From Klebsormidium nitens (lineage: Eukaryota > Plantae > Klebsormidiophyceae), in contig DF237387.1 of NCBI GenBank assembly GCA_000708835.1, positions 12,975-76,974 on the forward strand: a stretch of 64,000 bases of DNA, in the 5' to 3' direction. Position 1 is the first letter of the stretch; the number at the start of each line of letters is the position of its first letter. The notes under the pieces are model-generated. The model was not told the DNA's origin and ran no database searches. It saw only the letters and a list, made by a program, of their open reading frames with translations. The position numbers and the translations under genes were made by a program. Shown here one piece after another: positions 47,228 to 64,000 of the stretch.

Positions 47228-48462
47228 AAAGAGGAAGCAAACGCTCGGGAGGTGAGTTTGCTGTATTGCAGCCCGAATTGTTTCAAGCTTGGCTTCAAAG
47301 AGTTCAGATTCAAGTCCAGCCATACTTTTCTTGTTGCCCGCGCTGAAGGGTCCATGCCGGATTGACGGCACACTGAATCACCTTCAACGGTTAAGCGAGT
47401 TGATTAGGACTCGGTTCTCATTTGAACTCGGCAGTTAGCACGGTGCAGAAGCATGAGATGATGTTCTGCGTTTCCTGTCCGAAGCAAATGTGAAGCTAAA
47501 GTACGTACAAAAGAGGATCGACGGTCATAGCAAAACAGGGACGCGGGTGCTGCCACCTTGCCCAAAAGGCAGTCCGTTGAACAGGTTGTTAGAGCGCACT
47601 TTCTTAGGCTCTCGATCAAAAGTATCGGGCGGTTGAGCCTTCACGTCTTCGAACACCTGTACCGCATGCGAGCCCCTGATTTCCAGATGGAAAGTGCACT
47701 CACCAAAGAACGAAGGTCCCTAAACATTGCCACTTTCGTTTTGCAGGAGGATAACAGCCGGCCAAGATTTCTTGGTCTTGACTCCCCATCCCTGCCTTAC
47801 AAGAGTCGAATTCCCGGCCTATCAATTGACCACTTCCATCGTGTAAACAGGATGGTGACTTATATAGGCCAACAATTAAACTTACATATGTAGTTGCAAT
47901 CGTCACTGCAAGAGTCATGACTGAAGATGAAAATCGATTGTCGGACTGCTTCCAAGTACAAGTTTTGACGGTTTCGTTCAGATCAACTTGCCGCGGCCGA
48001 GCTTACAGTCGAAACGTCATATGAGCATAGTACGTGATTATTGGTGGTACCATGAAACCGAGGCCGTGCCGAGAGCCTCGTGCATATTGACAATGGTCCC
48101 TTAGAGGTTTACCCGCGCGGCCGTATATACGCACAGTGCGTACACACGCGCGCATGCCAAGCTGATACGCATTGATCGGCCTGGCCGGCCATACATGCAG
48201 CATGTTAGATATATGCATGGTATATCAAGGCGGGACCGCTTACCGTCAAACATGTCGGAGGGTAATTGATTAATTCAGGGCCCAGGGCCGGGATCGTGCA
48301 CTCATCATTGCATGGCTTCGATGTTTCACAACGCGTGGTGTGCACGATTATTGCAGTTGCAATTCCGGGGTGAGTACGGGAGTTGGACACCAGTATATGC
48401 TCTCATCATAAGGGCGAAGTAAGTAAGATAATGTCCATCATACCCAGAATTAATGTTACCAA

Positions 48463-51400
48463 TCAAGAAGGCCTGGCTTTTTTTGACGCACGACTTGTAT
48501 TTGAAAAGCTTCCCTCCGGTTCCTTCTTCTTGCTGCAGCGGCGCTCGGCAAGCTTCTCTATGTACTTCCAAGGTTGAGAAGGGTCAACCCCAGCCGCAGC
48601 CATACTAGCCTCGACCGCTTCAATTGCTGCAGCCTCATCCACGTTACCTCTCCGCATGACGTCTTCTATGATTATGCACAGTTTGCGGAACTTGGAGAAA
48701 TACCTGATCTCTTTCACCCGCCCCCTCCTCCATGAACAGCCGTACAGATCCTCCAAATCCCTCAAGGGAAGCGGACAGCCTGGCTTGCCATGTGCCCATT
48801 CACTCCAATATTGAGCTACACACTGGTAATCTCTTCCTACCGTGTAACCCGAAACCCATTCGGGAAGGACGGTCGCATTCGAACGAACCCTCACAAAGGC
48901 CTGTCCGACGTCTGCGCTTTCTCTAAGAAGTTCGCCGTCCAGCTGGACTTCTCCACTGGGCTGTACGCCACCAGTCGTGCTGCTCGCTGGCCCCCCCTCT
49001 GGTGCACTACTGTATGCAGGCACCCTCTCCGGTGCGCGGCTGTTCTCTCCCCCCTCCTCTGGTGCGTGGCTGTCCGCGGGCACCCTCGCCGGTGCCCCGC
49101 CGTTTGAGGCGACCGCGTCCGAGGCGCGGCTGTCCGCTGCGCCCCCCTCTGGGGCTTGGCTGTTTTCTGTTCCTCCTTCTCGGGCAGGGCTGCCCGTTGG
49201 ACTCCCGTTCGGTGCGCGTGTGTCCGCGGGCCTCCTCTCTGGTGCGCAGCCGTTGGCGGCGACCGCGTCCGGTGCGCGGGTGTCCGCGGACGTCCCCGCC
49301 GGTGCGGGGCTGTCCGAAGCGCCCCCTTCCGGTGCGCGACTGTCCGAAGCGCCCCCTTTCGGTGGCACGCAGCTGTCCGCGGACGCCCCTGCCGGTTCGC
49401 GGCGGTCCACAGCTCCCCCGTCCGGCGCGCAACTGTCCGCGGCGCCCCCGTCCGGTGTGCTGCCGTCCGTTGGCACACTCCCCGAGCACGCGGCCGCTCG
49501 TGCGGCTGCTCTTAAGGCAGCCTCTGTTGCTGCCGTAAGCGATGAGCTCGGGGGCCGAGCGAAAAAGGTCGGATGGCTTCTTCGGACAGCGGATTGCCCG
49601 CGCTCCACGGCAGTTGAAGCCCCACGTTCCCCGGTCGAGGAGGGGCTCGGAATTGCCCCAAAACGTTGGCCGGAACCGGAGTCCTGAAGGAGTCTCCTTA
49701 GTCCCGCCACCTCCTGCGCCAATTCCGCGATCTGCTTGAGGCCCGCTCGTTCCTTCTCCTTGCAGTCGCGAACGTCGCGTTGGATCCCAGCCAACAGTGC
49801 CTGATGATCCCGGAGGAGTGTAATGACCTGCATAGAGCATACTCCAATGATTTGGGAGGCGACATGATGAGCGCGTCCTACGATATTTGACAGAAGAAGA
49901 GGGAAGCAAAAGTACGCCCGTAAAAGCATGCGCGGACCTTGCCGAGTTGCATAAGGACATCTCCGAAATGGATGACCGACGTGTCTCCTTTCCGAACAAA
50001 ATCAGATACGAAGCTGACGTTTTATTGGCCCGTTCATCGACCGACACACTTGGCAAAGCCTTTGTCAGGGTCTGAATAGGGCTGTGGTACACCAAGGAGA
50101 TACTTCGCTTGAAACGAAGACCTGCCCTGCTGACACGGTGGTCGTGTTTTGAATCAACCGTGATGCATTGTCCAAGCGAAGCGGTCTCACGGAAAGAACT
50201 TTGCTTATCTAAGCTCCCGAGGAGAAAGCATGCAGATCATAAGTTTCTTCACGCAGGTCAATCAGAACTCCGACCCCGATGGTGTAACGTACATTGGAGC
50301 AACACATCATAACAGTTGACTTTCAGCAAACAATCTGAACAGATGGGTACGTCTCTCTAAACCTTGAAAGCTAGTTCGGGATTCACCTCGGGTGGCAGGT
50401 TGATGAGTTGCGGCGGGGCCTCCGGTGCGTTGCACGCTTCCAAGACCTCCGCCGCAAACGAGTCCCAGTCATCGCCCTCAAAGATAGAGTGGTAGATGAT
50501 GGGGTGACCGAGGTACTTTTCAAGGCTTTGTAGCACGGCCACGTCCTGGAGGATGACCGCACGCAGCTCAATGAGCAGCTCGACGAAGCGCTGTGCGGCG
50601 ATGTCCCGCTCAGCCACGGGGCGAGTGAGATTCTTCTGCAGAGACTCGGTGAAAGTTAGCGTCTCTTCAAAAGAAGCTCTTTCTCCGTACGATGTACGCT
50701 GTTCGTCTCCTGATAGCAAATCGTAGTGCCCGAGCACGGCGGTGACAACAACCTCAGCCAAAGGAGAAGACCTTATTGCCGTGACCGGTGTGTTTTTTAC
50801 TACTGTATGGTTCTCCAATTCGGTCCCGAGCGCTTCCTTTGAGCACGACTTGACCGGATTTTGAACACCCGGAACCATTGACCTCCAAGTACAAAGTGAA
50901 GTCTTCAAGTCTTCCTCGGAAGCCGCGGTTTTGAAAGAGCAAAGACCGTCTGATATGCAAGAACTCTTGAAGAATGGCGCAGGCATCTTCTTGGATTAAC
51001 GCTCTCTTCAACCAGTGACTAAGGGGAGAAACTCACGTTCCTGATGTACGTGAGCGCATCTTCCGCCCACGGAAAGATCTTGGCCGCTAAATCTGGATGG
51101 TTGGTCTCAGGGCGTGCGCGGCCGCGCTTGAGCACGTACGCCTTCCGGTCGTCCGAGGAACCAGCATTGATGAGCATGGCACCGACCGGCAGCTGGTTGA
51201 GGTAGGACGTCCGGAAGTGGTCGTAGATCCAGCGTCCAAGTCGGGCGCTCTCCCCCTCTTTTCCACTGCAAACATCAAAGGCAGTGATGTTATCTACTTC
51301 TCGATGCAAACATGCAGGCAAGCCTTTGCATCTTTAAGAGACTCCTGAAGACACGTTGTGCAACCTAAACGGCCTGCCTGCACAAACGCGATGCCTGACA

Positions 51401-54400
51401 GCGGCTGTGCAAGCGATGAGGTATCAAGTCGTCAGAATGAGGACCTCGGACAATCGATATACGGACAGATTCTGTAGATCGAAACGATCCTCGCCAAAAC
51501 TTGGGCAACAGGTATGCTTGCAAGGGTCAGACCATGGCAAAGCTGTTGGGAGGGAAAGCGCATAGATGTGGGCCAGGCTGCTTACCCATTGTCTTCGGCA
51601 TGCCTGACGGACGACCCACGTGGCGCGTGGGTGATCTTGCTGCTGACCACGTGCTCGTGTTGAAACATGGTCTTGAATTGCTTGAGCTGGGTGTCGTACT
51701 CCATTTTCTCGAAGATGTCGTCGTTCTCGTAGAAGAGCGGAAACTTGTTGTACCTGCGTCAAAAGGACAATGGTGTCGTGACACGCTCTGACGGTTCAAC
51801 ATACGAGGTGAATACGTATTCCACTTCAAACCATCGTCACTCTGGGAAAAGATCGACAAGCTTGGTGGACCGAAGGAACATAAAAGGGAAAAAGGTCAGT
51901 GCAACCGACAGCAACAATCGACAGCAACAACGGGAGCTGAGCCATTCCTTGCCTAAGCCTATACGCAAAAACTCTGAGAGAGAGCACAAGTCCCTTACCA
52001 GGCGGCCCTTGAACTGAAGTCTGGATATGAACCGGGCTCCGGGAACAGGATATGAAACGTCTGGAAGAGCTGGAACGCCACGGCGCCAACGGCGCACTCC
52101 TCCACGTTCTTGTGGCGGAAGCCTCCGAAATATTCAAGCCGCCCGTTCTGAAAAAGTGAGTACTGACTGCATAAACAACTCGAACTGTACTGGCTGATGC
52201 TTCTAAATCATGTTTCTGGCTTGGCTTCAGTGGAGGCAGATCGAGAAGAACTTCGTACTAAAGGGGCTTCAAAACCTGACGCAACCCCTACATAAGCGCC
52301 TTGAGAACGTTGGCCTTCAGGGCATTATAAGACCGTTTCAGGACTGCCTCGACGGGAAGTTCAGGCTAATCTTTCGTTTCTCTTCATCCAAAACACGCCG
52401 CGTCTTCACCGCTTCAGGGCTCTGCCACGTACTACTTACCTTGTTCGTTTTGCCGCAGTAGCTGACGCCGCCCACGAAGAGAGGGACGTCAGGTCCAACA
52501 TTAGTGAACTTTTTGCAATACAGATCCGGGAGGTCGATGCTGCGGCCGTCATCGCCACGAAGGACAAACTGGTGCGAAGCCAGAAACATTCCCCTGTCGC
52601 AAACGAAAGAGAAACTTACGGCTCTGAGCACAAACCAGTGGCAACCAAACGCACATGTAAGATGTCGAGTGCTCCACGGTCTTAGTTTGCTGCTAAGCCA
52701 AACAGCAGTGCTTCGCACAGGAAACCTCGATAAAGTTGGCGCCAGGTTAGCTCGGGGTTAAGATGGGCGCAAAACCTTAGAGCCACCGAAGGAAGCCGAC
52801 AAGGCGCTCTCAATCTCAGTGCTCAGTGCAGCTGTCCCTCAGTGACAGCGCTCACTTGAAGGCCAGCTCTTACCTCATTGTGGTATGCTGATGGGCTGAA
52901 TCCACCTCCTCGCCGTCGTTGAAGGCGGTGTTGGGACAAGCTGCATAGAGCCAAGCCTGACAAAGCCGCAACTTCTCCTCCGCTGTGTACCCGTCCGACT
53001 CCGTCCCCGCTTGGCGGTCGGCGCAAGTCCTGCAGATAATACTTGAAGCTTCAGCCTTTCATGTCCGCTTGTTGTTTGATCGAAAAGTCTTTGACTGTTG
53101 GAGTCGGTTTACGATTTTGACACCGAAAGTAGCACTATGCAGTAGATTAACAATTTGAAAGCGTTAGTTGAGAAGCAGAGGTGCAAGGAAACAAGCATAA
53201 AACTGGATTCAAAACGTTAGAGACGTGTGACCGGTGTTCCAAAGGTCCTCCTAATCAGTGGGAAGGACATATTTGGGTCCGCTTTGATATACGAGATGTC
53301 ATGCACCACAGCCTGACGCCTCGCATATTTCCCACAGCTATCACCATAGCCTCTTGCCTATGCGGGGACGGCAAGACGGCATCGGAAGTAGTGACGCAAG
53401 TTCATGCATACGGTGTTCGGACCACAATAAATGAATTGTGGAAATCGAGCTGGCACCCCACCGGATTTTCTTCTGCCCTGTGTTGAGCTGCGCAGCTTTG
53501 AGAAGTTGTTGCATGGTTGGTATAGCGCGAACGTCGCAAGATTGCTCGTGTATGCCGTCGAGGTTGTCTTGAACGAGCGCGAAAAACTGCATGCCCTTGA
53601 CGAAGTTGTTGACAACGCCGAATGACTGCAAAAGGAACGAAAGTCCGAAGGTCAATGTCGGAGTGTGAGAGTTTTGTGACTTTCGGTGCACTTGCAACGA
53701 GCAACGGAGTCCCCTCTCTGAGCGTCGGCGAAAGCTCTTCTAAGGCCCATACGACTTTCATGATTCACAGTGGCGAATCAAGACAAAGATCCAGAGAACT
53801 TTCTTACTTTTGTATCAGGTACAGGCAGGTAGGTGCAAGCAGGCTCAACGTAACATGGAGCATCTACTGGCAGATCTGATGAGAGATGAAGAATTTAATC
53901 TTTGTTACAAGACACAAGACACAGACCTGGACCAAAACTGGTGGGGCGCTGAGGCACGTGTTCGTTTCTACTGTTTGTAACATCGTCAAGGAAAACGATG
54001 CCCATCTCCAGCGACCCACTTATCCTTGAGCTTACCATATCCTTGTTGTTGAGTTGGCCGAGGAGATTGACCGCGAGAGCAATCCTGCTGGTGGTGATGC
54101 GCGGGCCGCATGCCCACTCCGGAAGAGCCTCTTGGCGCAGCAAACCTTGGACGTAAGGATTCCGCGGGGGAGCCCACGGACCATCGGCGGTGCCGTGACC
54201 GTTGGTTCTGCAGAAGTTCTGGAGAAGGAAGCAAAATGAATGAGACTCTTACAAGTTGCCACAAAGTATACGACTGGCTGGCTGGACTGGTGGGTACGAG
54301 CGGGTTCCGTAACTACCACGTGTAGCAATAGTGCCAATTCGCTCAAGCATGTGTGTTGTCGAGAAGAACCCCTACGGTCTTAGGTCGGAACTTTGCAGTT

Positions 54401-55639
54401 TCATTCTCGCTCCGAACATTCTTGAAGAACTTAGCAGGCAGGAGACGCGTTACTGTAAGCGATACTTTGTGAGGGGGCTTGAGCGCCGTAGGGTCAGAGA
54501 TTTTTACAAGCTGACGTCAGCAATACTCGGAGGAACTGCAGTACCTAACCGGACAATAATTCTGAACCCGACTTTGAGACGGACGGTTGGACTCCTTCGA
54601 GCGCTTCAAACCAAAAAAACGAAAGAGCTATTGCATTCGCTGTTATCGACTGTCCGCAAGGGCCTGGAACATTGCGAGCTCGCGGTTCGTGGACATGAGC
54701 TGACGTCAGCAACACCTGATCAATTTGCGCTTTATGGAACGACACTCTTTTCAAACAAGACGGTGTTATGTAACCGTTGGCCGTTTCAAAGCTGTAGCAC
54801 GGTATCGCAACGCTGTAGCGACTTTTCAAAAACGGACTGGACTACTGCCGGCTTGGAGGTGCTGACACGAGATGACGTCAGCAATACGGTGAAGAAGCAC
54901 ACTGTCTGGCCACACCCTTTTTAGAAAGCACTTCGGACAGGCATTTGGAACCGCAGATTTTAATGGAGCCCCCGCTCCTTGATTGCGAATAGAAAGACGA
55001 CCGCGCACTCCTAATCATTTTCTGCCAAAGAGGTGATAACGCCCGGTCGAAAGTGTGAACGCACCTTGTACGTCCTCAGTGCCCGAATGTAGTCCTTGTA
55101 ACTCTTGGGCTTCAGCTCGTCGACCTTCATGATGGCTGCGGTCCAGTTGGCCTGCGCTTGCTGGTCCTCATGGCTCATGTGCCCAGGCACCCCGGTTCCG
55201 CCCGGAGATTCCGCAGCATCAGCGGAACCCGGGGCCGCTTGCCCAGAAGTCTGCTCGCTTCCATTCCCAGAGGTCCCCGGCTCCGCTGAAATACCGTCGA
55301 GCACGCTAGTGCCCGCTCTCCGCCCCCCTCGCCTACTTCTCCCGGCCCCCGTGCTCCCTCCCCGACCGGTTGCCCTTCTCACCGGAGCCCCAGTCGCTCC
55401 CCCGGTCCCTTGGTTCCGTTTCCGTTTCCGTCGCGGGGCTTCCGGCTGTGGTTCTTGGGGGATCCCCTCAAAGTTCGGCGATAGGACGTCCCCGCCGCCA
55501 GCAGCAGCGGCAGTCCTTCGGCCGCGCAAATCGATGGGCACGTCTTCGCTGTCTTCGTGCTCTTCCTCGCAGGTTGAGCGCGGTGGAGGTGAAGCTGGGC
55601 CCGGATTCTTTTCGATGCCGCTTCGAAAGAGCAGAATCT
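48463..55639 (-). CDS. Crypton-type tyrosine recombinase/transposase (NDC10 domain II-like YR + C-terminal GCR1_C), preceded by a 2A-like peptide
   Basis: Ten exons join without stop or frameshift: 55065-55639, 54036-54218, 53462-53625, 52874-53029, 52440-52593, 51999-52147, 51586-51753, 51037-51265, 50363-50635, 48463-49827 (3416 nt). Motifs: DRQAGTESDGYT, FVLRGDDGRSIDLPDL, GKTNKNGRLEYFGGFRHKNVEECAVGAVAF, PDFSSRAAWYNK, KITHAPRGSSVRHAEDNG, RLGRW, FRTSYLNQLP, KIFPW, AAQRFVELLIELRAVILQDVAVL and GCR1_C-like YTVGRDYQCVAQYWSEWAHG..LRDLEDLYGCSWRR..YFSKFRKL. Confidence 0.92.
48988..49470 (-). repeat. Coding tandem repeat, about 16 units of 30 bp (10 aa; consensus ~ADSRAPEGGA), in the Crypton last exon
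   Basis: TDGSTPDGGA ADSCAPDGGA VDRREPAGAS ADSCVPPKGGA SDSRAPEGGA SDSPAPAGTS ADTRAPDAVA ... ENSRAPERVP AYSSAPEGGP. Confidence 0.9.
55596..55619 (-). other. 2A-like (StopGo) ribosomal-skipping motif GIEKNPG/P
   Basis: The minus strand reads ATT CTG CTC TTT CGA AGC GGC ATC GAA AAG AAT CCG GGC CCA = ILLFRSGIEKNPGP, in frame with the recombinase. Confidence 0.7.
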
Positions 55640-56132
55640 CTGAAACACAGATCACGAGCGATTACATAGCGTCGCACCTACTCACAAGAACCTGCTCGCA
55701 ACTTCTTCTGAGGTTGTGCTTCAATGTCCGTTGAGTTCTATCGGAGACTGTGGCGTGGTCTTTTAATCAAAGAGTATGGCCTTTCGACATGGTTCGAAAA
55801 GTAAGCTAGCGAACTTGTCAACGCCTTGTCATTGGTCAAACTAACATGTGTACCTCACTTGAGCACGTTGGCTGGAGGGTCGAAAACTGGGGTCAAAGCC
55901 ACTTGCTTCTGATCGAGACTGGAGTCGACAAACGCATTGCAAAGCAGCTTAAGTTGCTACACCATAGGTTGATCATAGAGTGCGAAGCAGACGATGCCAA
56001 TCAGACCCCTAGAGAGGCCCACATTCCAAGATCATTAAAACGGCCTGGTTGTGGGGCATGAACAGATTCTAGTGCCTTTCAAAGTAACCAGGGATACAGA
56101 AGAGACAACATAAGATGGCATGGAAGACATAC

Positions 56133-57277
56133 CGATGATGGCTCGGCTTAGCGCTTGTTGGATCCCAATGTTGAGATCCTTATGGAACTTCTCCGGCAGC
56201 CCACGTTCGCTCTCCAGCCAGTAGCGAGTGCTTCCCACAGAGCTGGTCCAACCTGTAAACGAATGCTTGGCAATGAAGGAACGATCTCAAAATTGAAAAC
56301 AAAACTGAAACCTGTGACAATGCTAGAGCATCTCCGCACGTTCAACCTAGTGGCCTGTTAACAGAGTGAAAGTCGACTGTACTAGCTGATTTGGAAGCAC
56401 CACCTAAAGCTCGGGGCTCCTGCACGAAGCGGCCACGATAACTACCCACAATCGATATTGCAGACCCCCTCTACGGAACACCTTCTACCTTGAACAGGAA
56501 GATCTCAGATTGATGCGGCAGCCCTGGCGCATCACCTACCATATGGTGAGAGAAGATGCGATAAAGCTATCAGGAGCTGACCGCAACATTGAGCAATCTA
56601 GTAAAGTACATATCAGAAGGGTGTCTGATGCGGAAGGTATTTGGGGGCTCACACAGCAGTTGCCGTGCCGTTGCGAGAGCCGTCTCCAGCATCTTTCCGC
56701 GCCAGCTCTCTTGCAACTCGTGGAGCTCATTCAAACGGCGTGCAACTTCTGCTTGAGACTTGGCCTTGTCGTCAACCTGACGCTGCGTGCGTCCGTCAAT
56801 CCACTCTGCATGGTTGGAAGATGTTCTGTAGTCAGTCAGAAAAGCTGGTTACGAAGACTTCATACTACAAGGTTTTGCTATACTACTGAGGGTCACAGTC
56901 AGAAACTTCCCTTTCAACTGCTGAGCTGCTGTAGGCACCAAGGGGCAGTCTTGCTCTGTGCCAGGAACCAGCTTCATGGAAGGGGCTTTACTGAATTGCC
57001 AAGTACATTCCAAGCGACAATCGCCCCTGCACGAGCAAGATTCATACCCTTTGATCACCGAAGCAGAAACTGTTGTTGTAAGCAAGTATGATTTATCATT
57101 AGCAATCATCACCTTGGCGGTCAGGATCAATGCGGAAGTAGCCCGCAGCGACAGTTCCGCTGCGAGAGTCTGCTGGCTTGTGCTTCTGACATCGGTACTC
57201 CATTTTACCATGCTTGCCCCCAAGCCGTCCATGTGAAGCATGAGCCCCACAGCAATCACATTGGAGTTGGAAGACAT
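56133..57277 (-). CDS. Upstream in-frame exons of the Crypton transcription unit (Cys/His zinc-finger-like motif plus helical segment)
   Basis: Three phase-1/phase-1 exons: 57113-57277 (DVFQLQCDCCGAHASHGRLGGKHGKMEYRCQKHKP), 56653-56805 (EWIDGRTQRQVDDKAKSQAEVARRLNELHELQESWRGKMLE) and 56133-56252 (CWTSSVGSTRYWLESERGLPEKFHKDLNIGIQQALSRAII). The last phase-1 donor matches the phase-1 acceptor at 55639. A further candidate exon ends at 57771 (GGGG|GTAAG). The start codon is unresolved. Confidence 0.6.
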
Positions 57278-60200
57278 CTGCAGATGTCCAAAAGGATCTT
57301 TGAGATTTATCAAAGATGAGGAGATTCATCAAAGATGAGGAAAACAATCAGCATCATCATAAAGAGACGGGCTCCTGTGGCAACTTATACCCAACTTGTA
57401 TTCCTCGCACAAGCGGTCAGACTCGCACGTTGAAACAAAGGCACCAATAAAATCCAAGACCTCTATGGTTATCTAACCAAACGACTGCCAGGTCGGTGAG
57501 CTGCCAGGCTGTGGCATGTACGGCCCACCAAACTATCCCAATATTGCATCGGCCTCAGTCAATGTCATCAATGGACAAGGCTTCTGAAAGGCCTCCATCC
57601 ACATTTAGACACAACATAAGGGCAACCAGGCAAGTGAGACAGCCTGCTGCATGTATGTCCACGAAGCCAGGCGTCAAAGCAGATTAGTGAGAGGCATGCC
57701 AAAACTCAGAGCAAGAGTAGGCACTGTACATCTGACCTGGCATTCAGAGAAAAGAAATCAAAGCTCTTACCCCCTAGCTCTTCTATCATGATGGATGCCA
57801 TAGAGTCAGATGATGGCTTCAACACACTGCAGGGTGCAGACGACTCTCTAGCTGTGTATGGGCTGTCAAGTGTGGAAGATGCAGGAGGGTGGCTGTTTTT
57901 GTGATGCAGCTGGGTTCTCTGCTTTAGATTCGGATTGGTCCTATGCTTTGGAATAGAGGCATGATGGAATAGAGGCCTGACGAGCTGTAGCCCCAAGCGA
58001 GCTACCAGACAAGGAGGTGAGCTTCTGCAAGATGCTTAACCCATCCGGAACCCTCCCAGCAACTGCGATTGCCACAAGACAGTGGTGCCCGCAGCAGGGA
58101 AAAGAGGCAATCCTACTCAGCTGCTAAAGCTGACCGAAGAAGATGGAAGCATATGTCCTGGACCACTGCTCACACTGCACTCCTCCCAATGTTTTGACCC
58201 CCTTCTTCCCAGCAGAAGGTTCTGTCAAGGCGTCTTCCTCTCCAGCTCTCAAAATCTGGTTGTGGCAGTGGCAGTACCCGGCATTGGACAACCAACTTGC
58301 GGTACCAAGACTCATGATCTAATAGAAGTACCTAACAGGGCGCCCTGTGATCAAATTGAGGTATCAAAGTCTTCAGGTATTTGCAAGGTTTGGTTTGAAA
58401 TTTGAATTCTGAGCAGATGGGTTCAATCAACGGTTTACTGTGCAAATTGGTTTGCACGAGCGTCGGCGGCAGAGGGCATGCACGCGGCGGCGGGCAAAAT
58501 GACTTTGCCGTACGCGCTGTAGTACGAAGCAGGGCTACAGGTACTCACATAGACTCTCCAAGGCGTACAATTATTCCTTCAGTACTTAGGACTACTTTGT
58601 AGTGTCTTGATCGCACGATCGCATGGTTATCGCCCGGTCTAAAACCGGGGATCGCATGCGATTCCCAAGACTGTCGCCAGGGAAGGGGCGACTTATACGG
58701 TAGCTGGCCGGGAGCTGCACACATTTGGAGCGTCGCCAGCTGCTAGCTGGTGCCAGTGCTGGCGCCTCTGATCAGTCTGATGGGCCAGCATGGGCCAGCA
58801 TCGTCAGGCAATCAGGCAGGCGCCGTCATTTTGCGTGTGTCGCATGTACACCATCGTACTTCTGACGTGAGGGGCTCATCATTGGCAATGCATAATGAGA
58901 TTCAAGAACCAGCTGCACCAGGAGCGGAGTTAGGGCAGGAAGGCAGCTGGCGGATCAAGAAGAGATGGGGGGAGGATCGTACAGCTCATAGAAGGATGCG
59001 GAGGAAAGCAGGCTGGTTGACTGCTAACGGCTAATGCGTTCGGCAGTTTGGGAACGAGTATAGGCGTTTGGCAAGGCGGGCGGGCTACCTTCAAACGTGG
59101 CACAATTGACTGGGGCGTTGACAGAAGGGCCGGCCCGGCCGCTTCTCTGCACGGGGAATGCCATGAGTAGAGTGGATAAACGGCCGGCTAATCTGTTTTC
59201 TGGTCGGAATTGAAAAGACTGGAAGAGGGCAGGGCTGCCCAACTGATGCAACAGAACTGTTTACGATTGCCAGGGAGTCGTTGACAGGCCCTTGACAGGG
59301 GGTACGGGCCGGCACTGGAGGCGAGCAGGCGAAGTTCAGTTTGCGGCCCCTTTGCGGCGGACCTGCTGGCAAGTTGGAAGTGCGTTTTTATGACGGTGAG
59401 CCCAAGCAAGAGCAACAGCGGCAAGGTCATCTTCGGTCGCTTCGTGAAGGGGGAAGGAGGTTAGGAAGAAGGAGAACTTGGAGAACTCGAAAGCCGGTCC
59501 TTGCCAAAATTGTAAGAGACCTAATTTGTCTTCGAAGCTTCGATCACCTCGTGGCAGCGTTCTTTCTTGAAGAAGTGGAACGTTTCTGTGAGAATTTTGT
59601 GCAATGGTTTCCCAACTCTCAGGGTGCGAGCAGCTGTGGGGCATCTGCTACTAAGCCAGCCGTAAATATTTGACGAGATTCGGCGCCATCGGAGAAGTGC
59701 CGCTGATCATCTGATCAAGAAAAGGCCACTGCTGGAGATGCACCTCAGCATGGAGCCTTCGCTCGAATTTCGGAACGGCTGACCTGTACGCCGGTGTGAC
59801 GGTGCAGGCAAGTGTCGATCTGCTCAAGACAAAGTGAGGGCACTCGAAGAAGAGATTTGATGCTTTCGTCAGCAGCCGGGCAAAATCCTTCGCAGGTGGA
59901 GTCAGGATACAGGCCCGGGACTCGGCGGGTCTTGTGCAGTCGATGGAAAGTAGGGAGCGTTCAACCTAAGATCTGAGAAACGCTTTGTGTGGCCCGTGCA
60001 GAAGAGGTCTTAGAAGACAAGGTGTGAACAGCAACGCCACGTCAGGGTGCGAAAAGGTGAGTGAAAGTCCACGAAAGTGATATTGCATATCCTTATCCGC
60101 ATATAGCCGCATGAACAGTGTTGCTTTCAAAGATGCGGGGAGTGGGATTGCAAATGGGCTTGCAAAATGGTGACTAGGGGTAAGTGTCGTCGTTCATAAG

Positions 60201-61358
60201 GGATGTCAAAGCTGGTGAGTGGTAGACTCCCTTTTGCGAGATGGTCAACAATCGTGTTGTGTTCTTGGGCCTTTTCTACGTCTCGGTGAAAGGGTGGGTC
60301 GTGCGTCAACGCGTGGCCTGCGGTGCTTGGGGCCATCGCGCTGGTGTGCTTTCATATGCACGATCTCAGTGGTGCCTGTACGTGAGGCAATCTCCTCTGA
60401 ATCCGAAGAATAAGTGAGCGGTTAGACAAGTGGCAACTGAGTTCGTAAGGTTTCGACGTCCGCAGCAAGGCCCAAGTACGCAGGTAGGGCAGACTGCTTG
60501 ACGACAAGTCGTTGGATGGTGGGCCTTCATTAAGGCTATCTCAAGTGACGATCTATATAAAATCAATTGCACGACGCACGCCCGGCGCGGCGCCCTGGAA
60601 CGCGCCGTGATGTGTATATATGGTCATGCATCAAATTGCCACACTAAGTTTAGGCAACTACGCACAGTTGTGAATTTTGAAATCGAGGTGAGTCGGAAAC
60701 GGCATGTGGTGTTCAGCGTGCTGCATGTCAACGTACTGTGCGGTGTGGTGTGGACTGCGTCACCGACTGGAACGGTTAACTCGCGCGGTGTAGTTTTGCA
60801 GGCAGTAAGCGGCGAGCCCAAGTTGCAAACCGCCAATTAACGTGCGGTGTAACACATCCTCAACAGTGCGATGCCATGCGGATCGGCCGTCATTGATTGT
60901 AGTCCACGCGGTAAGAGTCCAAGAGGCTTTTACTAGCAGCATACGGTAGTGTTTGGGCTGCACAGTTTTTACCTAGTATAAGGCCCGTGGGACCCGGCGT
61001 CTTGTGTGCTCAATATCATGTAAAACTGGACATTTACAAGCCCTAAGCAAAATATGTCACCTATATCAATACAATAAGTAAGCATGGATGGCTAGTACAA
61101 GCATTTGTCGGTCTTGCCTTCTGCAAGTCGTCGCCTTGCACAACGGCTCAACAATTGCGAAGATTTGCTGGTAAGTCTGCAAGGCTTTTGGCACTATTTG
61201 GCAAGGCGTCATGCGGTTCTGATTAGCTCTACCGACCGCCAAAAAGCTGGAACTTGGCTGGACGCTCGAAGGACTGCCGGAGGCTATGGCGAGAGCAACA
61301 ATTGAAACACCAACAGCTCCTAACCAAACAACAGCCGGCAAGTCAAAGGACAAGTTAC

Positions 61359-63280
61359 CTATCTGGGGGTTAAAAACCTAGACTCGACCTGGACGGTCGA
61401 AGCGAGCTGCCTCGACCCTAAGTCGTAGCTGCCAGACAGGAAAGAGCCTGACCCATCAAGATCCCAAGCAGACCCGGCTCCCTGATTGGTCGACGCCACA
61501 CTCGTGTCAGCGGCCTGCTTGCTAAGCTGCCACCACACCTGGTCCATAGACGGCCGCCGAGATGGGTCCTTGCACAGGCAGCTCAGTGCGATTGCGATGT
61601 AGCGCTGCGCTTCAGCCATGTCGTACGCGCCACCAAGCAAAGGGTCGATCAGCTCCAGCACCCTCCCTTTGCGAGCGTACTCTTCCCCGGTTTCGGACAG
61701 TCGCTCGACCAGGCCGCTCTCAAGTTGCCGCACCACCGGACGCGCGGAGAGGACCTCCAGGCACAACACGCCGAAGCTGTAGACGTCGCACCTCGGGGAC
61801 AAGAACCGAGCTCCCCCGTGCAGGTATTCAGGGGCCATGTACGGCACGGTGCCCTTCACCATGGTGGACGTCACGTGGCCCCCCGCACCGCTCACCAGGT
61901 GTGCAAGGCCGAAGTCGGTGATGCACGCGCGCACCGGGGGTCCCTCCGCCAGCAGGATGTTCCCCGCTTTGATGTCCCGGTGCAGCATCGGGGGCTGGAT
62001 GTCATTGTGCAGGTAGTTGAGGCCTCGGGCAATATCTCGAATCACACCAGTGCGCTCTTCCCAGGTGAGCGCCGGTCCCCTGCCCTCCCTTGCAGCATGC
62101 AGCTGCCCGCCAAGGCTGCCATGCGGGAAAAACTCCAGGACGAGCAGGCACTCTCCCGCGTCGACGCAGACCCCCAGCAGTGGCACCAGGTTTTTGTGCC
62201 GGACCTTCTCGAGCGCCTCCACCTCCACGCGCCATGACCGCTCCTCCACATCGCCGCGCCCCAGGCGCTGCAGCAGCCGCTTCACCGCCACGACCCTGTT
62301 CGGACCTCTGGAAAGGGTCGCCTTATACACGATTCCGAAGGAGCCACGTCCGACGACATTGGCATCGCTGAAGTCGTCCGTCCCCTCCCTAAGCTCGGTT
62401 AGTGTGTACTGCCCCTGATAACGTGGCAGCGGGGAATTATGCTTTGGGGGTTGCCTCGGCTGGGGCCTTGAACCAGGTTGCGGGGATAAAACAGGTGGCT
62501 CCGACGTCGGGCGTCTCTGAGGAGGCTGCCGCGGATTGGGCTTTGGGATTCGGGATGACTGGGCATGTGTCGTAGAGTGGGGGGACAAAACTGGCGCAGA
62601 AGGAGCTGGGTTTGTCGGGGCAGAAGGGAATGTGCCCGCTGAGGACACCAGGTTTTCGGCCCCATCTTCTGCGTCTTCTATTTTCTCCAGGGCCACCCCA
62701 GCCTGCCGCATCTGGTGGCGCCTTTTTCTATGGTATAGGACACCCAAACAAATGGCAAGGAGGAGCAAAGTCGCCCCCGCAACCACTGCCCCGATGATGA
62801 TGCCCAAGGGTTGATTATTTCTTGGCCATTGCAAATCAGGGTTCCCGTCAAGGATATCTTTCTTATCAAACTTCACCAAAGTACTAGGAACCATGCCAGA
62901 GAGATTGTTATGTCCCAACAAAAGGCCCCAGAGGTAGGCGGGCTTGCCAAGTTGTGAAGGAATGTTGCCAGACAGCGAATTGAAACTCAAATCCATTAAT
63001 TGGAGTCTGGTGAGATTGCCAAGCTGAGGAGGAATGCTGCCAGACAGCAGATTGTTTCCCAGTTCGATGAATTCGAGGTTGGTCATGTTGCCAAGCTGAG
63101 GAGGAATGCTGCCAGACAGCTTATTGTTCTTAAGTTTTAGAGATTGGAGTCTTGTCAGATTCCCTAGCTCGGGAGGAATAGTGCCTACCAGGTTGGGGCC
63201 TTTAAGGTCCAATTCCGTCAGATTTGTGAGCATACCTAGTTGAGGTGGTATGGTCCCATTAAGTTGTATGTAGTCATAGC
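61359..63280 (-). CDS. Leucine-rich-repeat receptor-like kinase (RLK/Pelle family); 5' exon unresolved
   Basis: Plant-type LRRs (LxxLxLxxNxLSGSIPPQLGNLT), TM IIIGAVVAGATLLLLAICLGVL followed by HRKRR, and a Pro-rich juxtamembrane region. Kinase motifs: VGRGSFGIVYK, VAVK, HKNLVPLLG, HRDIKAGNILL, DFGLA, GTVPYMAPEY, DVYSFGV, CLCKDPSRRPSM. An acceptor (ctaac..cttag) lies at 63281. Confidence 0.93.
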
Positions 63281-64000
63281 CTAAGCGAATAGGTTAGCTG
63301 AGACAGGAGGACTCCAGGATACTGAAGTTGGATCTCGTCCATTGTAAGTGGAGAGACTGGGAAGATCAGCCAGCACCAGCTCAGTAGAATGATGAGCTGA
63401 GGCCTGTGATTGGGCAGCATGCTTGCTGGTGTGGGTTGCAAGTCGACTAAGAATCCTTCTTTGGCTTCAGAAGCTGGCCTGAAAACATGGAAACAAAGGT
63501 AGGCATCAGTACACTCCCTTTCTGCCACATTGATCTGACCAATACATAGAGCCAATTTTGAATCTTCTACTTGCAACCCTAGAGGGCAGATTCAGTCGTT
63601 TGTTCTGACACCGACGTCAAGTTTTCTGTTTACAAACAAGAGGTAGAAGGCAATATGGCCCAGCCTAGCTGTGGCTAAAAAAATTGTGTATCAAAGTGGG
63701 CTGATAGTGATATCAAAACCGGGTCAAAACCAAGGAACAAACCAGAAGGAAACAGGGAGGTTTGATAGTGAGGTAGTTTAGACGATTAGATATTGCACTG
63801 TCAATCTGGAACGAGAATACAACAGACATTCAGTAGTTTTGCACGATAAGCTGTAACACCTCAACACCTAAGTCCTGTATAGACCAAGAAAGTCGCCGCT
63901 AGCAATCGTTTTTTGAAGTAGTAGCATTCAGCCCCACATTCTCACCAATGATGTAGCACAACAGATAATCGAAGTCAGTCAGGGCTATTGTGACGGTTGG

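Follow-up and report, generated by a model that had tools for sequence, protein, structure and literature searches.

Does a Crypton-type recombinase gene of Klebsormidium nitens encode a 2A (StopGo) peptide, so that one spliced mRNA could give rise to two separate proteins? The question is raised by a stretch of 64,000 nucleotides on contig DF237387.1 (hereafter the window), in which the initial annotation placed a 2A-like motif at the N terminus of a tyrosine recombinase encoded on the minus strand. Here, we find that the motif is real and conserved, and that it likely yields a separate 170-residue leader and a 1,116-residue CryptonF-type recombinase. The features of the gene are collected in Table 1.

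Table 1. Coordinates of the gene and its exons, in window positions
Feature	Coordinates	Strand	Content	Evidence
Gene	57801 (ATG) to 48463 (stop)	minus	14 exons, 1,286 aa	
Exon 1	57771..58552	minus	long 5' leader, 7 upstream ATGs, first in-frame ATG 57801	RNA contigs
Exon 2	57113..57277	minus	leader protein aa 11-65, CxxC-x19-CxxH pattern (putative zinc binding)	joints in 4/4 runs
Exon 3	56653..56805	minus	predicted long helix of the leader protein	joints; low-confidence model
Exon 4	56133..56252	minus	N-terminal portion of the 2A-like peptide (..IGIQQALSRAII)	splice sites, joints
Intron	55640..56132	minus	493 nt, GT-AG, phase 1, splits the 2A-like peptide at E157	4/4 runs
Exon 5, start	55596..55639	minus	C-terminal portion of the 2A-like peptide, ILLFRSGIEKNPG/P; core octamer 55619-55596	
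Exon 5, rest	55065..55595	minus	poorly conserved linker, basic RRKRKR at aa 226-231, recombinase start	
Exons 6-13	50387..54218	minus	tyrosine recombinase core	Pfam, alignment, joints
Exon 14	48463..49827	minus	coiled segment, 30-nt tandem repeats, GCR1_C, stop	

We assembled the exon chain from GT-AG sites and then checked it against transcript contigs from four runs (of 24 listed) belonging to four studies; these contigs were taken as RNA because they skip GT-AG introns, none of the runs being on record as RNA. Four other runs that carry the K. nitens species label contain a fraction of 0.00-0.03 of the words in the run search, a figure that bears neither way on insertion polymorphism. Translation of the spliced coding sequence exactly matches the database protein P0001, that is, K. 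nitens GAQ88550.1, which its source annotates as a "putative transcription activator." All 13 introns are seen as CT..AC joints on the plus strand in each of the four runs compared, and the contigs show no sequence differences from the gene. Exons 1, 5, and 14 lie together in single contigs (X9 record 16, 4,551 nt; X5 record 11, 5,823 nt), and the 438 letters separating exons 1 and 5 in the former correspond to exons 2 to 4. The continuous reading frame on these two contigs bears out the single spliced mRNA that had been proposed. On the 5' side contigs extend to 58405 (X9) and 58552 (X11), positions that do not mark true starts, and on the 3' side they stop at 48371-48412.

The intron that interrupts the peptide had been predicted with the donor ATCG/GTATG at 56133/56132 and the acceptor TTTCAG/AG at 55640/55639. 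Both sites were found at these positions, and the corresponding joint (55639-56133, CT..AC on the plus strand) is present in contigs of all four runs, so that the motif is retained in the transcript contigs rather than being spliced out or lying upstream of their starts. The contigs correct the second acceptor used in the leader to 56805.

Immediately after the TTTCAG acceptor, positions 55639-55596 of the minus strand encode ILLFRSGIEKNPGP, in agreement with the location first given for the motif. The octamer GIEKNPGP occupies residues 164-171, with the predicted skip between G170 and P171 (between 55599 and 55598), and is in frame within one continuous 1,286-aa ORF with coding sequence on both sides. 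The sequence EILLFRSGIEKNPG/P fits the published StopGo core (D/G/C/N)(V/I)ExNPGP, a widened form given by Li et al. 2026 (PMC12846837), and does not match the older strict consensus D(V/I)ExNPGP. According to the same source, G at p12 is as frequent as D, and G-type motifs favor P at p15, where the peptide described here has K. The upstream LLFRSG agrees with that paper's text description of the L-rich motif 5, ending in (A/G/S)G, which lies outside the four motifs assayed there. A helix is predicted with low confidence upstream of the core (aa 137-162). The G-type variant initially attributed to infectious flacherie virus (IFV) is on record as AGIESNPGP in a table of PMC8623073, with ~99% activity. 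By its sequence, we assign the peptide to the 2A family; assignment to class B 2A peptides was ruled out, as there is no W at -16.

Composition predicts 5e-4 occurrences of the octamer for each six-frame window and 2e-5 for each protein, a rate at which scanning very many windows meets some octamers, and a lone hit could thus be due to chance. Chance is excluded here by the conservation of the motif in homologues, where the octamer recurs with differing residues in six of eight sequences; in addition, none of 100 shuffles matched the longer pattern. Since the intron is also spliced in four of four runs, we consider a chance match or a gene-model artefact highly improbable. One other NPGP in the window (plus strand, 55226) was rejected as an antisense chance match without the E.

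A profile search reached 1,491 proteins at E<=0.001, and the homologue survey covers the 150 listed among them. Eight sequences, drawn from the listed matches plus P0001, P0002, and P0006, cover the site; the set includes Logan and JGI records and its members may not be independent. The initial annotation had made its proposal depend on NPGP being kept at this site in homologous Cryptons. Among the matches listed, homologous copies do keep it, with the full octamer at the same position in 6/8 site-covering homologues. The octamers start with GIEK (twice), NVES, NVET, GVEQ, and GIEV, and the six complete peptides end LLFRSGIEKNPGP, LLLRSGIEKNPGP, LLLRGNVESNPGP, LLLRGNVETNPGP, LLIRGGVEQNPGP, and LLIRAGIEVNPGP. 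In the two remaining cases, the P0063 record begins at MNPGP, so that earlier core residues are absent from it, and P0127 reads VDPGP, with DPGP in place of NPGP. The P0007 model begins within the recombinase and does not cover the site. P0095 and P0127 were transferred from the distant to the close set on the basis of their alignment.

We observe that L-L-x-R and E are invariant in the six complete peptides and PGP in all eight sequences, while K, S, T, Q, V, and M occupy the free x position across homologues. Variation falls mainly where StopGo tolerates it (G/N at p12, I/V at p13, and the free p15), with E and NPGP fixed. Identity to P0006 amounts to 15/30 over the final 30 aa leading to the site, compared with 6/31 before and 6/30 after this segment, and conservation ends directly after the final Pro. 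Protease cleavage at the site was also considered and found no support, the residue variation obeying StopGo rules. Among the distant Crypton-like hits listed, neither the octamer nor a one-off variant was found (0/125), and an N-terminal extension of at least 100 aa occurs in only 6/125 cores, a count that includes members of a Tilletia cluster. As judged from these sequences, the motif occurs only in a Klebsormidium-type clade rather than in Cryptons generally.

A degenerate scan of IMG/VR with the pattern from the window gave 41 matches in 40 contigs. Forty of these translate under a stricter pattern, 39 of the 40 in frames of at least 300 aa and in 34 distinct contexts overall, and the 41st reads FLLRSGIESNPGP. 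Of 16 viral ORFs that were scanned for domains, six carry RNA-virus-type domains (helicase in four, capsid, and dsRBM) and ten have no Pfam hit. Over the last 20 residues, as many as 13-15 are identical to IMG/VR peptides, an identity that arises partly by construction because the scan pattern was derived from the Crypton peptides. On the evidence of these sequences, an L-rich G-type subtype exists in long viral frames. One viral contig (L007) contains two such 2A-like peptides, 48 aa apart.

The Klebsormidium peptide resembles RNA-virus 2A peptides (motif 5, IFV) in its core, in its L-rich run ending in (S/A/G)G, and in its position after an N-terminal leader. It differs from them in lying in a nuclear intron-containing gene, in being itself split by an intron, and in standing upstream of a DNA recombinase, and its activity is a predicted one. 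APE-type non-LTR retrotransposons (L1Tc, Ingi, Rex1, L2, CR1, and Crack; PMC3708506) likewise place a 2A near the N terminus, before the catalytic domains, where it has been proposed to separate and down-tune the enzyme. In contrast to these elements, the gene described here encodes a DNA-transposon enzyme, with no reverse transcriptase or APE domain detected, and its family has a G/N core, whereas GD(V/I)ExNPGP was used to find theirs.

On the strength of the sequence, the peptide probably works as in a StopGo polyprotein. The peptide may instead be derived from a 2A and skip weakly or not at all, leaving mostly a 1,286-aa fusion in which the motif serves for pausing or attenuation, or belongs to a functional helix. 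Retrotransposon 2As vary in activity down to inactive ones (PMC3708506), and in a pooled screen in human cells few non-canonical variants, 139 of 1,969 with one substitution, were highly active (bioRxiv 10.64898/2026.09.24.754024). The DPGP of P0127 and a homology to P0006 that runs past the exit tunnel to ~60 aa upstream of the site would also agree with such a loss of activity. We nonetheless judge it unlikely, as the variation obeys StopGo rules, conservation halts right after the final Pro, and near-identical peptides are located in long viral frames.

As for the second product, P0001 contains Pfam NDC10_II (aa 519-806, E 1.6e-25) and GCR1_C, a DNA-binding domain (aa 1161-1238, E 1.3e-8), an architecture given for CryptonF (PMC3212892). 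The catalytic residues R-K-H-R-W-Y are intact (R528, K564, H659, R662, W685, and Y694); in an alignment of 41 cores (three K. nitens proteins and those hits from P0012 to P0062 whose cores have at least 330 aa), the R/K/R/W/Y columns are invariant in 41/41 and H is present in 39/41. The gene had been called a Crypton tyrosine recombinase, which these domains and residues uphold, and by its domains it is of the CryptonF type. Downstream of the skip, the predicted product starting at P171 measures 1,116 aa and 119.8 kDa, somewhat smaller than the ~1,125 aa first estimated. Its RRKRKR patch, which is basic in five homologues too, is likely a nuclear signal. A PDB sequence search with the single protein gave nothing significant, and metagenome scans (queries A1 and A3) and a viral scan (query A1) yielded no confirmed relative. 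The 30-nt tandem repeats of exon 14 (48979-49455) encode 10-aa units, and the length of this region varies between copies.

The predicted leader, with 170 aa and 19.3 kDa, ends in NPG. It has no Pfam hit, none of 851 candidates proved to be a relative at E<=1 (proteins of 30-706 aa searched), the best score in an atlas search was 0.77 and thus under the noise level, and comparison with 40 viral loci gave nothing below E 0.13; outside the copies described here, no relative was detected in these Pfam, protein, atlas, and viral-locus searches. An AF2 model from three sequences reached a pLDDT of 48. The "zinc-finger" label attached to the leader derives from one CxxC...CxxH pattern, seen in P0001 alone as other models do not cover or share the region, and is taken as putative. 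A helix motif, A-L-x-x-A-R-x-x-L-x-W, is common to the leader (exon 3) and P0006. Because this likeness lies ~55-60 aa before the skip site, and so outside the exit tunnel, it suggests at the sequence level that the leader has a role of its own; the term "accessory factor," used initially, is a guess.

The family has five K. nitens models: GAQ88550 (77-kb contig), GAQ92643 (15 kb), GAQ92565 (16 kb), GAQ91375 (36 kb), and GAQ83498 (173 kb). They are taken as five loci. The GAQ83498 model (P0009) ends at the same residue as exon 7 in the window. The four models that include a recombinase core group in a single long-branch clade, made up of two subfamilies that are ~64% identical, and the motif is conserved in both. 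The tree is a quick version built from 60 of 115 eligible cores (the four from K. nitens and the first 56 others by identifier); it carries a long-branch warning and supports just one clade with two subfamilies. The nearest relatives outside this clade are ~30% identical, and both named ones among the five checked are fungal. CryptonF of fungi and oomycetes (PMC3212892) and the active CryptonF-1_cRei of Chlamydomonas (PMC9977147) share with the Klebsormidium gene the tyrosine recombinase with C-terminal GCR1_C, the intact catalytic residues, and the low copy number. The gene differs from known CryptonF in its ~30% identity, its long separate branch, and the 170-aa leader with the 2A, a combination lacking in 125/125 distant hits.

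More tentatively, the five loci and the intact active site lead us to place the gene in a low-copy Crypton family with present or recent mobility. Should the skip be real and the gene belong to a domesticated, Crypton-derived host family, the 2A polyprotein would be a cellular one and not that of a transposon. Domestication of CryptonF is documented in fungi, with yeast Gcr1 and Cbf2/Ndc10 as examples, but the catalytic site has been lost from those fungal genes (PMC3212892), whereas all six residues are intact here. A clean 14-exon gene in the transcript contigs of four studies, with no sequence differences, points toward a host gene, and its ready transcription would also fit a domesticated one. 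Introns are common in Cryptons. Terminal repeats above chance were not found, flank-shared 7-10-mers being at chance level in a comparison in which a single copy cannot reveal repeats of 5-6 bp, no empty site was seen, and no second copy of the gene is present within the 64-kb window. Against this, an active algal CryptonF, which likewise carries GCR1_C, has just a 5-bp terminal motif, invisible from a single copy (PMC9977147), and the two subfamilies together take up at least five loci, of which two are on contigs of ~15 kb. Domestication appears the less likely reading, and the gene is tentatively viewed as part of a family that is or was mobile.

Known StopGo chemistry predicts that, at G170/P171, the L-rich helix and GIEKNPG in the exit tunnel would block the Gly-Pro bond. 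The leader (19 kDa, ending in NPG) would then be released, and translation would restart at Pro171 to give a 120-kDa product that holds a putative basic nuclear signal of its own along with the recombinase domain and GCR1_C. An element with one promoter would in this way make the leader in an amount at least equal to that of the recombinase, and recombinase output may be restrained. The role we favor, by analogy with the proposal for L1Tc (PMC3708506), would be a helper protein co-produced with restraint of the recombinase. The transcript leader (57802-58552, minus strand) includes a 63-codon upstream ORF at 58315 among its seven upstream ATGs, and these could be a second brake on translation.

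The peptide would have been gained once, before the split of the two subfamilies, and its source is probably an RNA virus or a retroelement. A more specific possibility, which we put forward tentatively, is that mobile charophyte Cryptons captured an RNA-virus 2A and that, through skipping, a single spliced mRNA yields a new leader and the recombinase. Under such a capture, the leader might regulate the direction of recombination or might suppress host silencing, in keeping with viral leaders, which often act against host defense.

At the outset, no report was known of a 2A in Cryptons or other tyrosine recombinase DNA transposons, and our literature search likewise found none for a Crypton or any other DNA transposon; subscription journals, Repbase reports, and theses were poorly covered and bioRxiv supplements lay outside the search, so that an earlier mention is possible. 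The main texts of the recent 2A surveys consulted contain neither "recombinase" nor a word starting with "transpos," and the mobile-element cases in the literature consulted are all reverse-transcribing elements. StopGo is described as frequent among RNA viruses, scarce in cellular genes, and almost missing from plant viruses (PMC12846837; bioRxiv 10.64898/2026.09.24.754024). The accessible part of Table S2 of Rao et al. 2025 has no GIEKNPGP, RSGIE, or RAGIE among its entries; its eight Viridiplantae rows comprise Chlorella and a different Klebsormidium protein, UPI000B56B393. The 2As predicted in the latter (two LLRGGVESNPGP) are of a similar G type but differ from the Crypton peptide in sequence and position (80-93 and 231-244). 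Among the papers listed, PMC10641963 alone includes both a 2A term ("2A-like") and "Crypton," with an abstract about GTF2IRD2 misannotation, and a paper naming both Klebsormidium and Crypton deals, in the text available, with Fanzors.

As far as its sequence indicates, the peptide is a known recoding signal in an element class for which no earlier report was found. If the reading holds, the gene would be the first case of a StopGo polyprotein in a DNA transposon, with a native 2A of a streptophyte that splicing puts together. The presence of a conserved 2A in such a gene would bring recoding to a new element class and would indicate that nuclear DNA acquired a 20-residue module from an RNA source. 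It would also expose a hidden second protein of Cryptons, whose mechanism is poorly known, and offers natural G/N variants, including the motif-5 class, tuned on the green-plant ribosome.

Several further features were observed around the gene. Three TGACGTCA palindromes, 170-190 nt apart, lie at 54506-54896 in the 846-nt intron that follows the motif exon; they resemble bZIP sites or element-binding sites. In the region 58500-60500, contigs spliced at a GT..AG joint (59394-60001, plus strand, X5) enter the first exon of the recombinase gene and contain no long ORF, possibly representing a divergent or overlapping non-coding transcript. An exon of an LRR receptor-like kinase adjoins the recombinase gene at 61359-63293 (minus strand). 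On the other side, the last exon of a convergent spliced gene (47745-47916) ends ~450 nt from the end of the recombinase transcript and thereby brackets the right boundary of the element.
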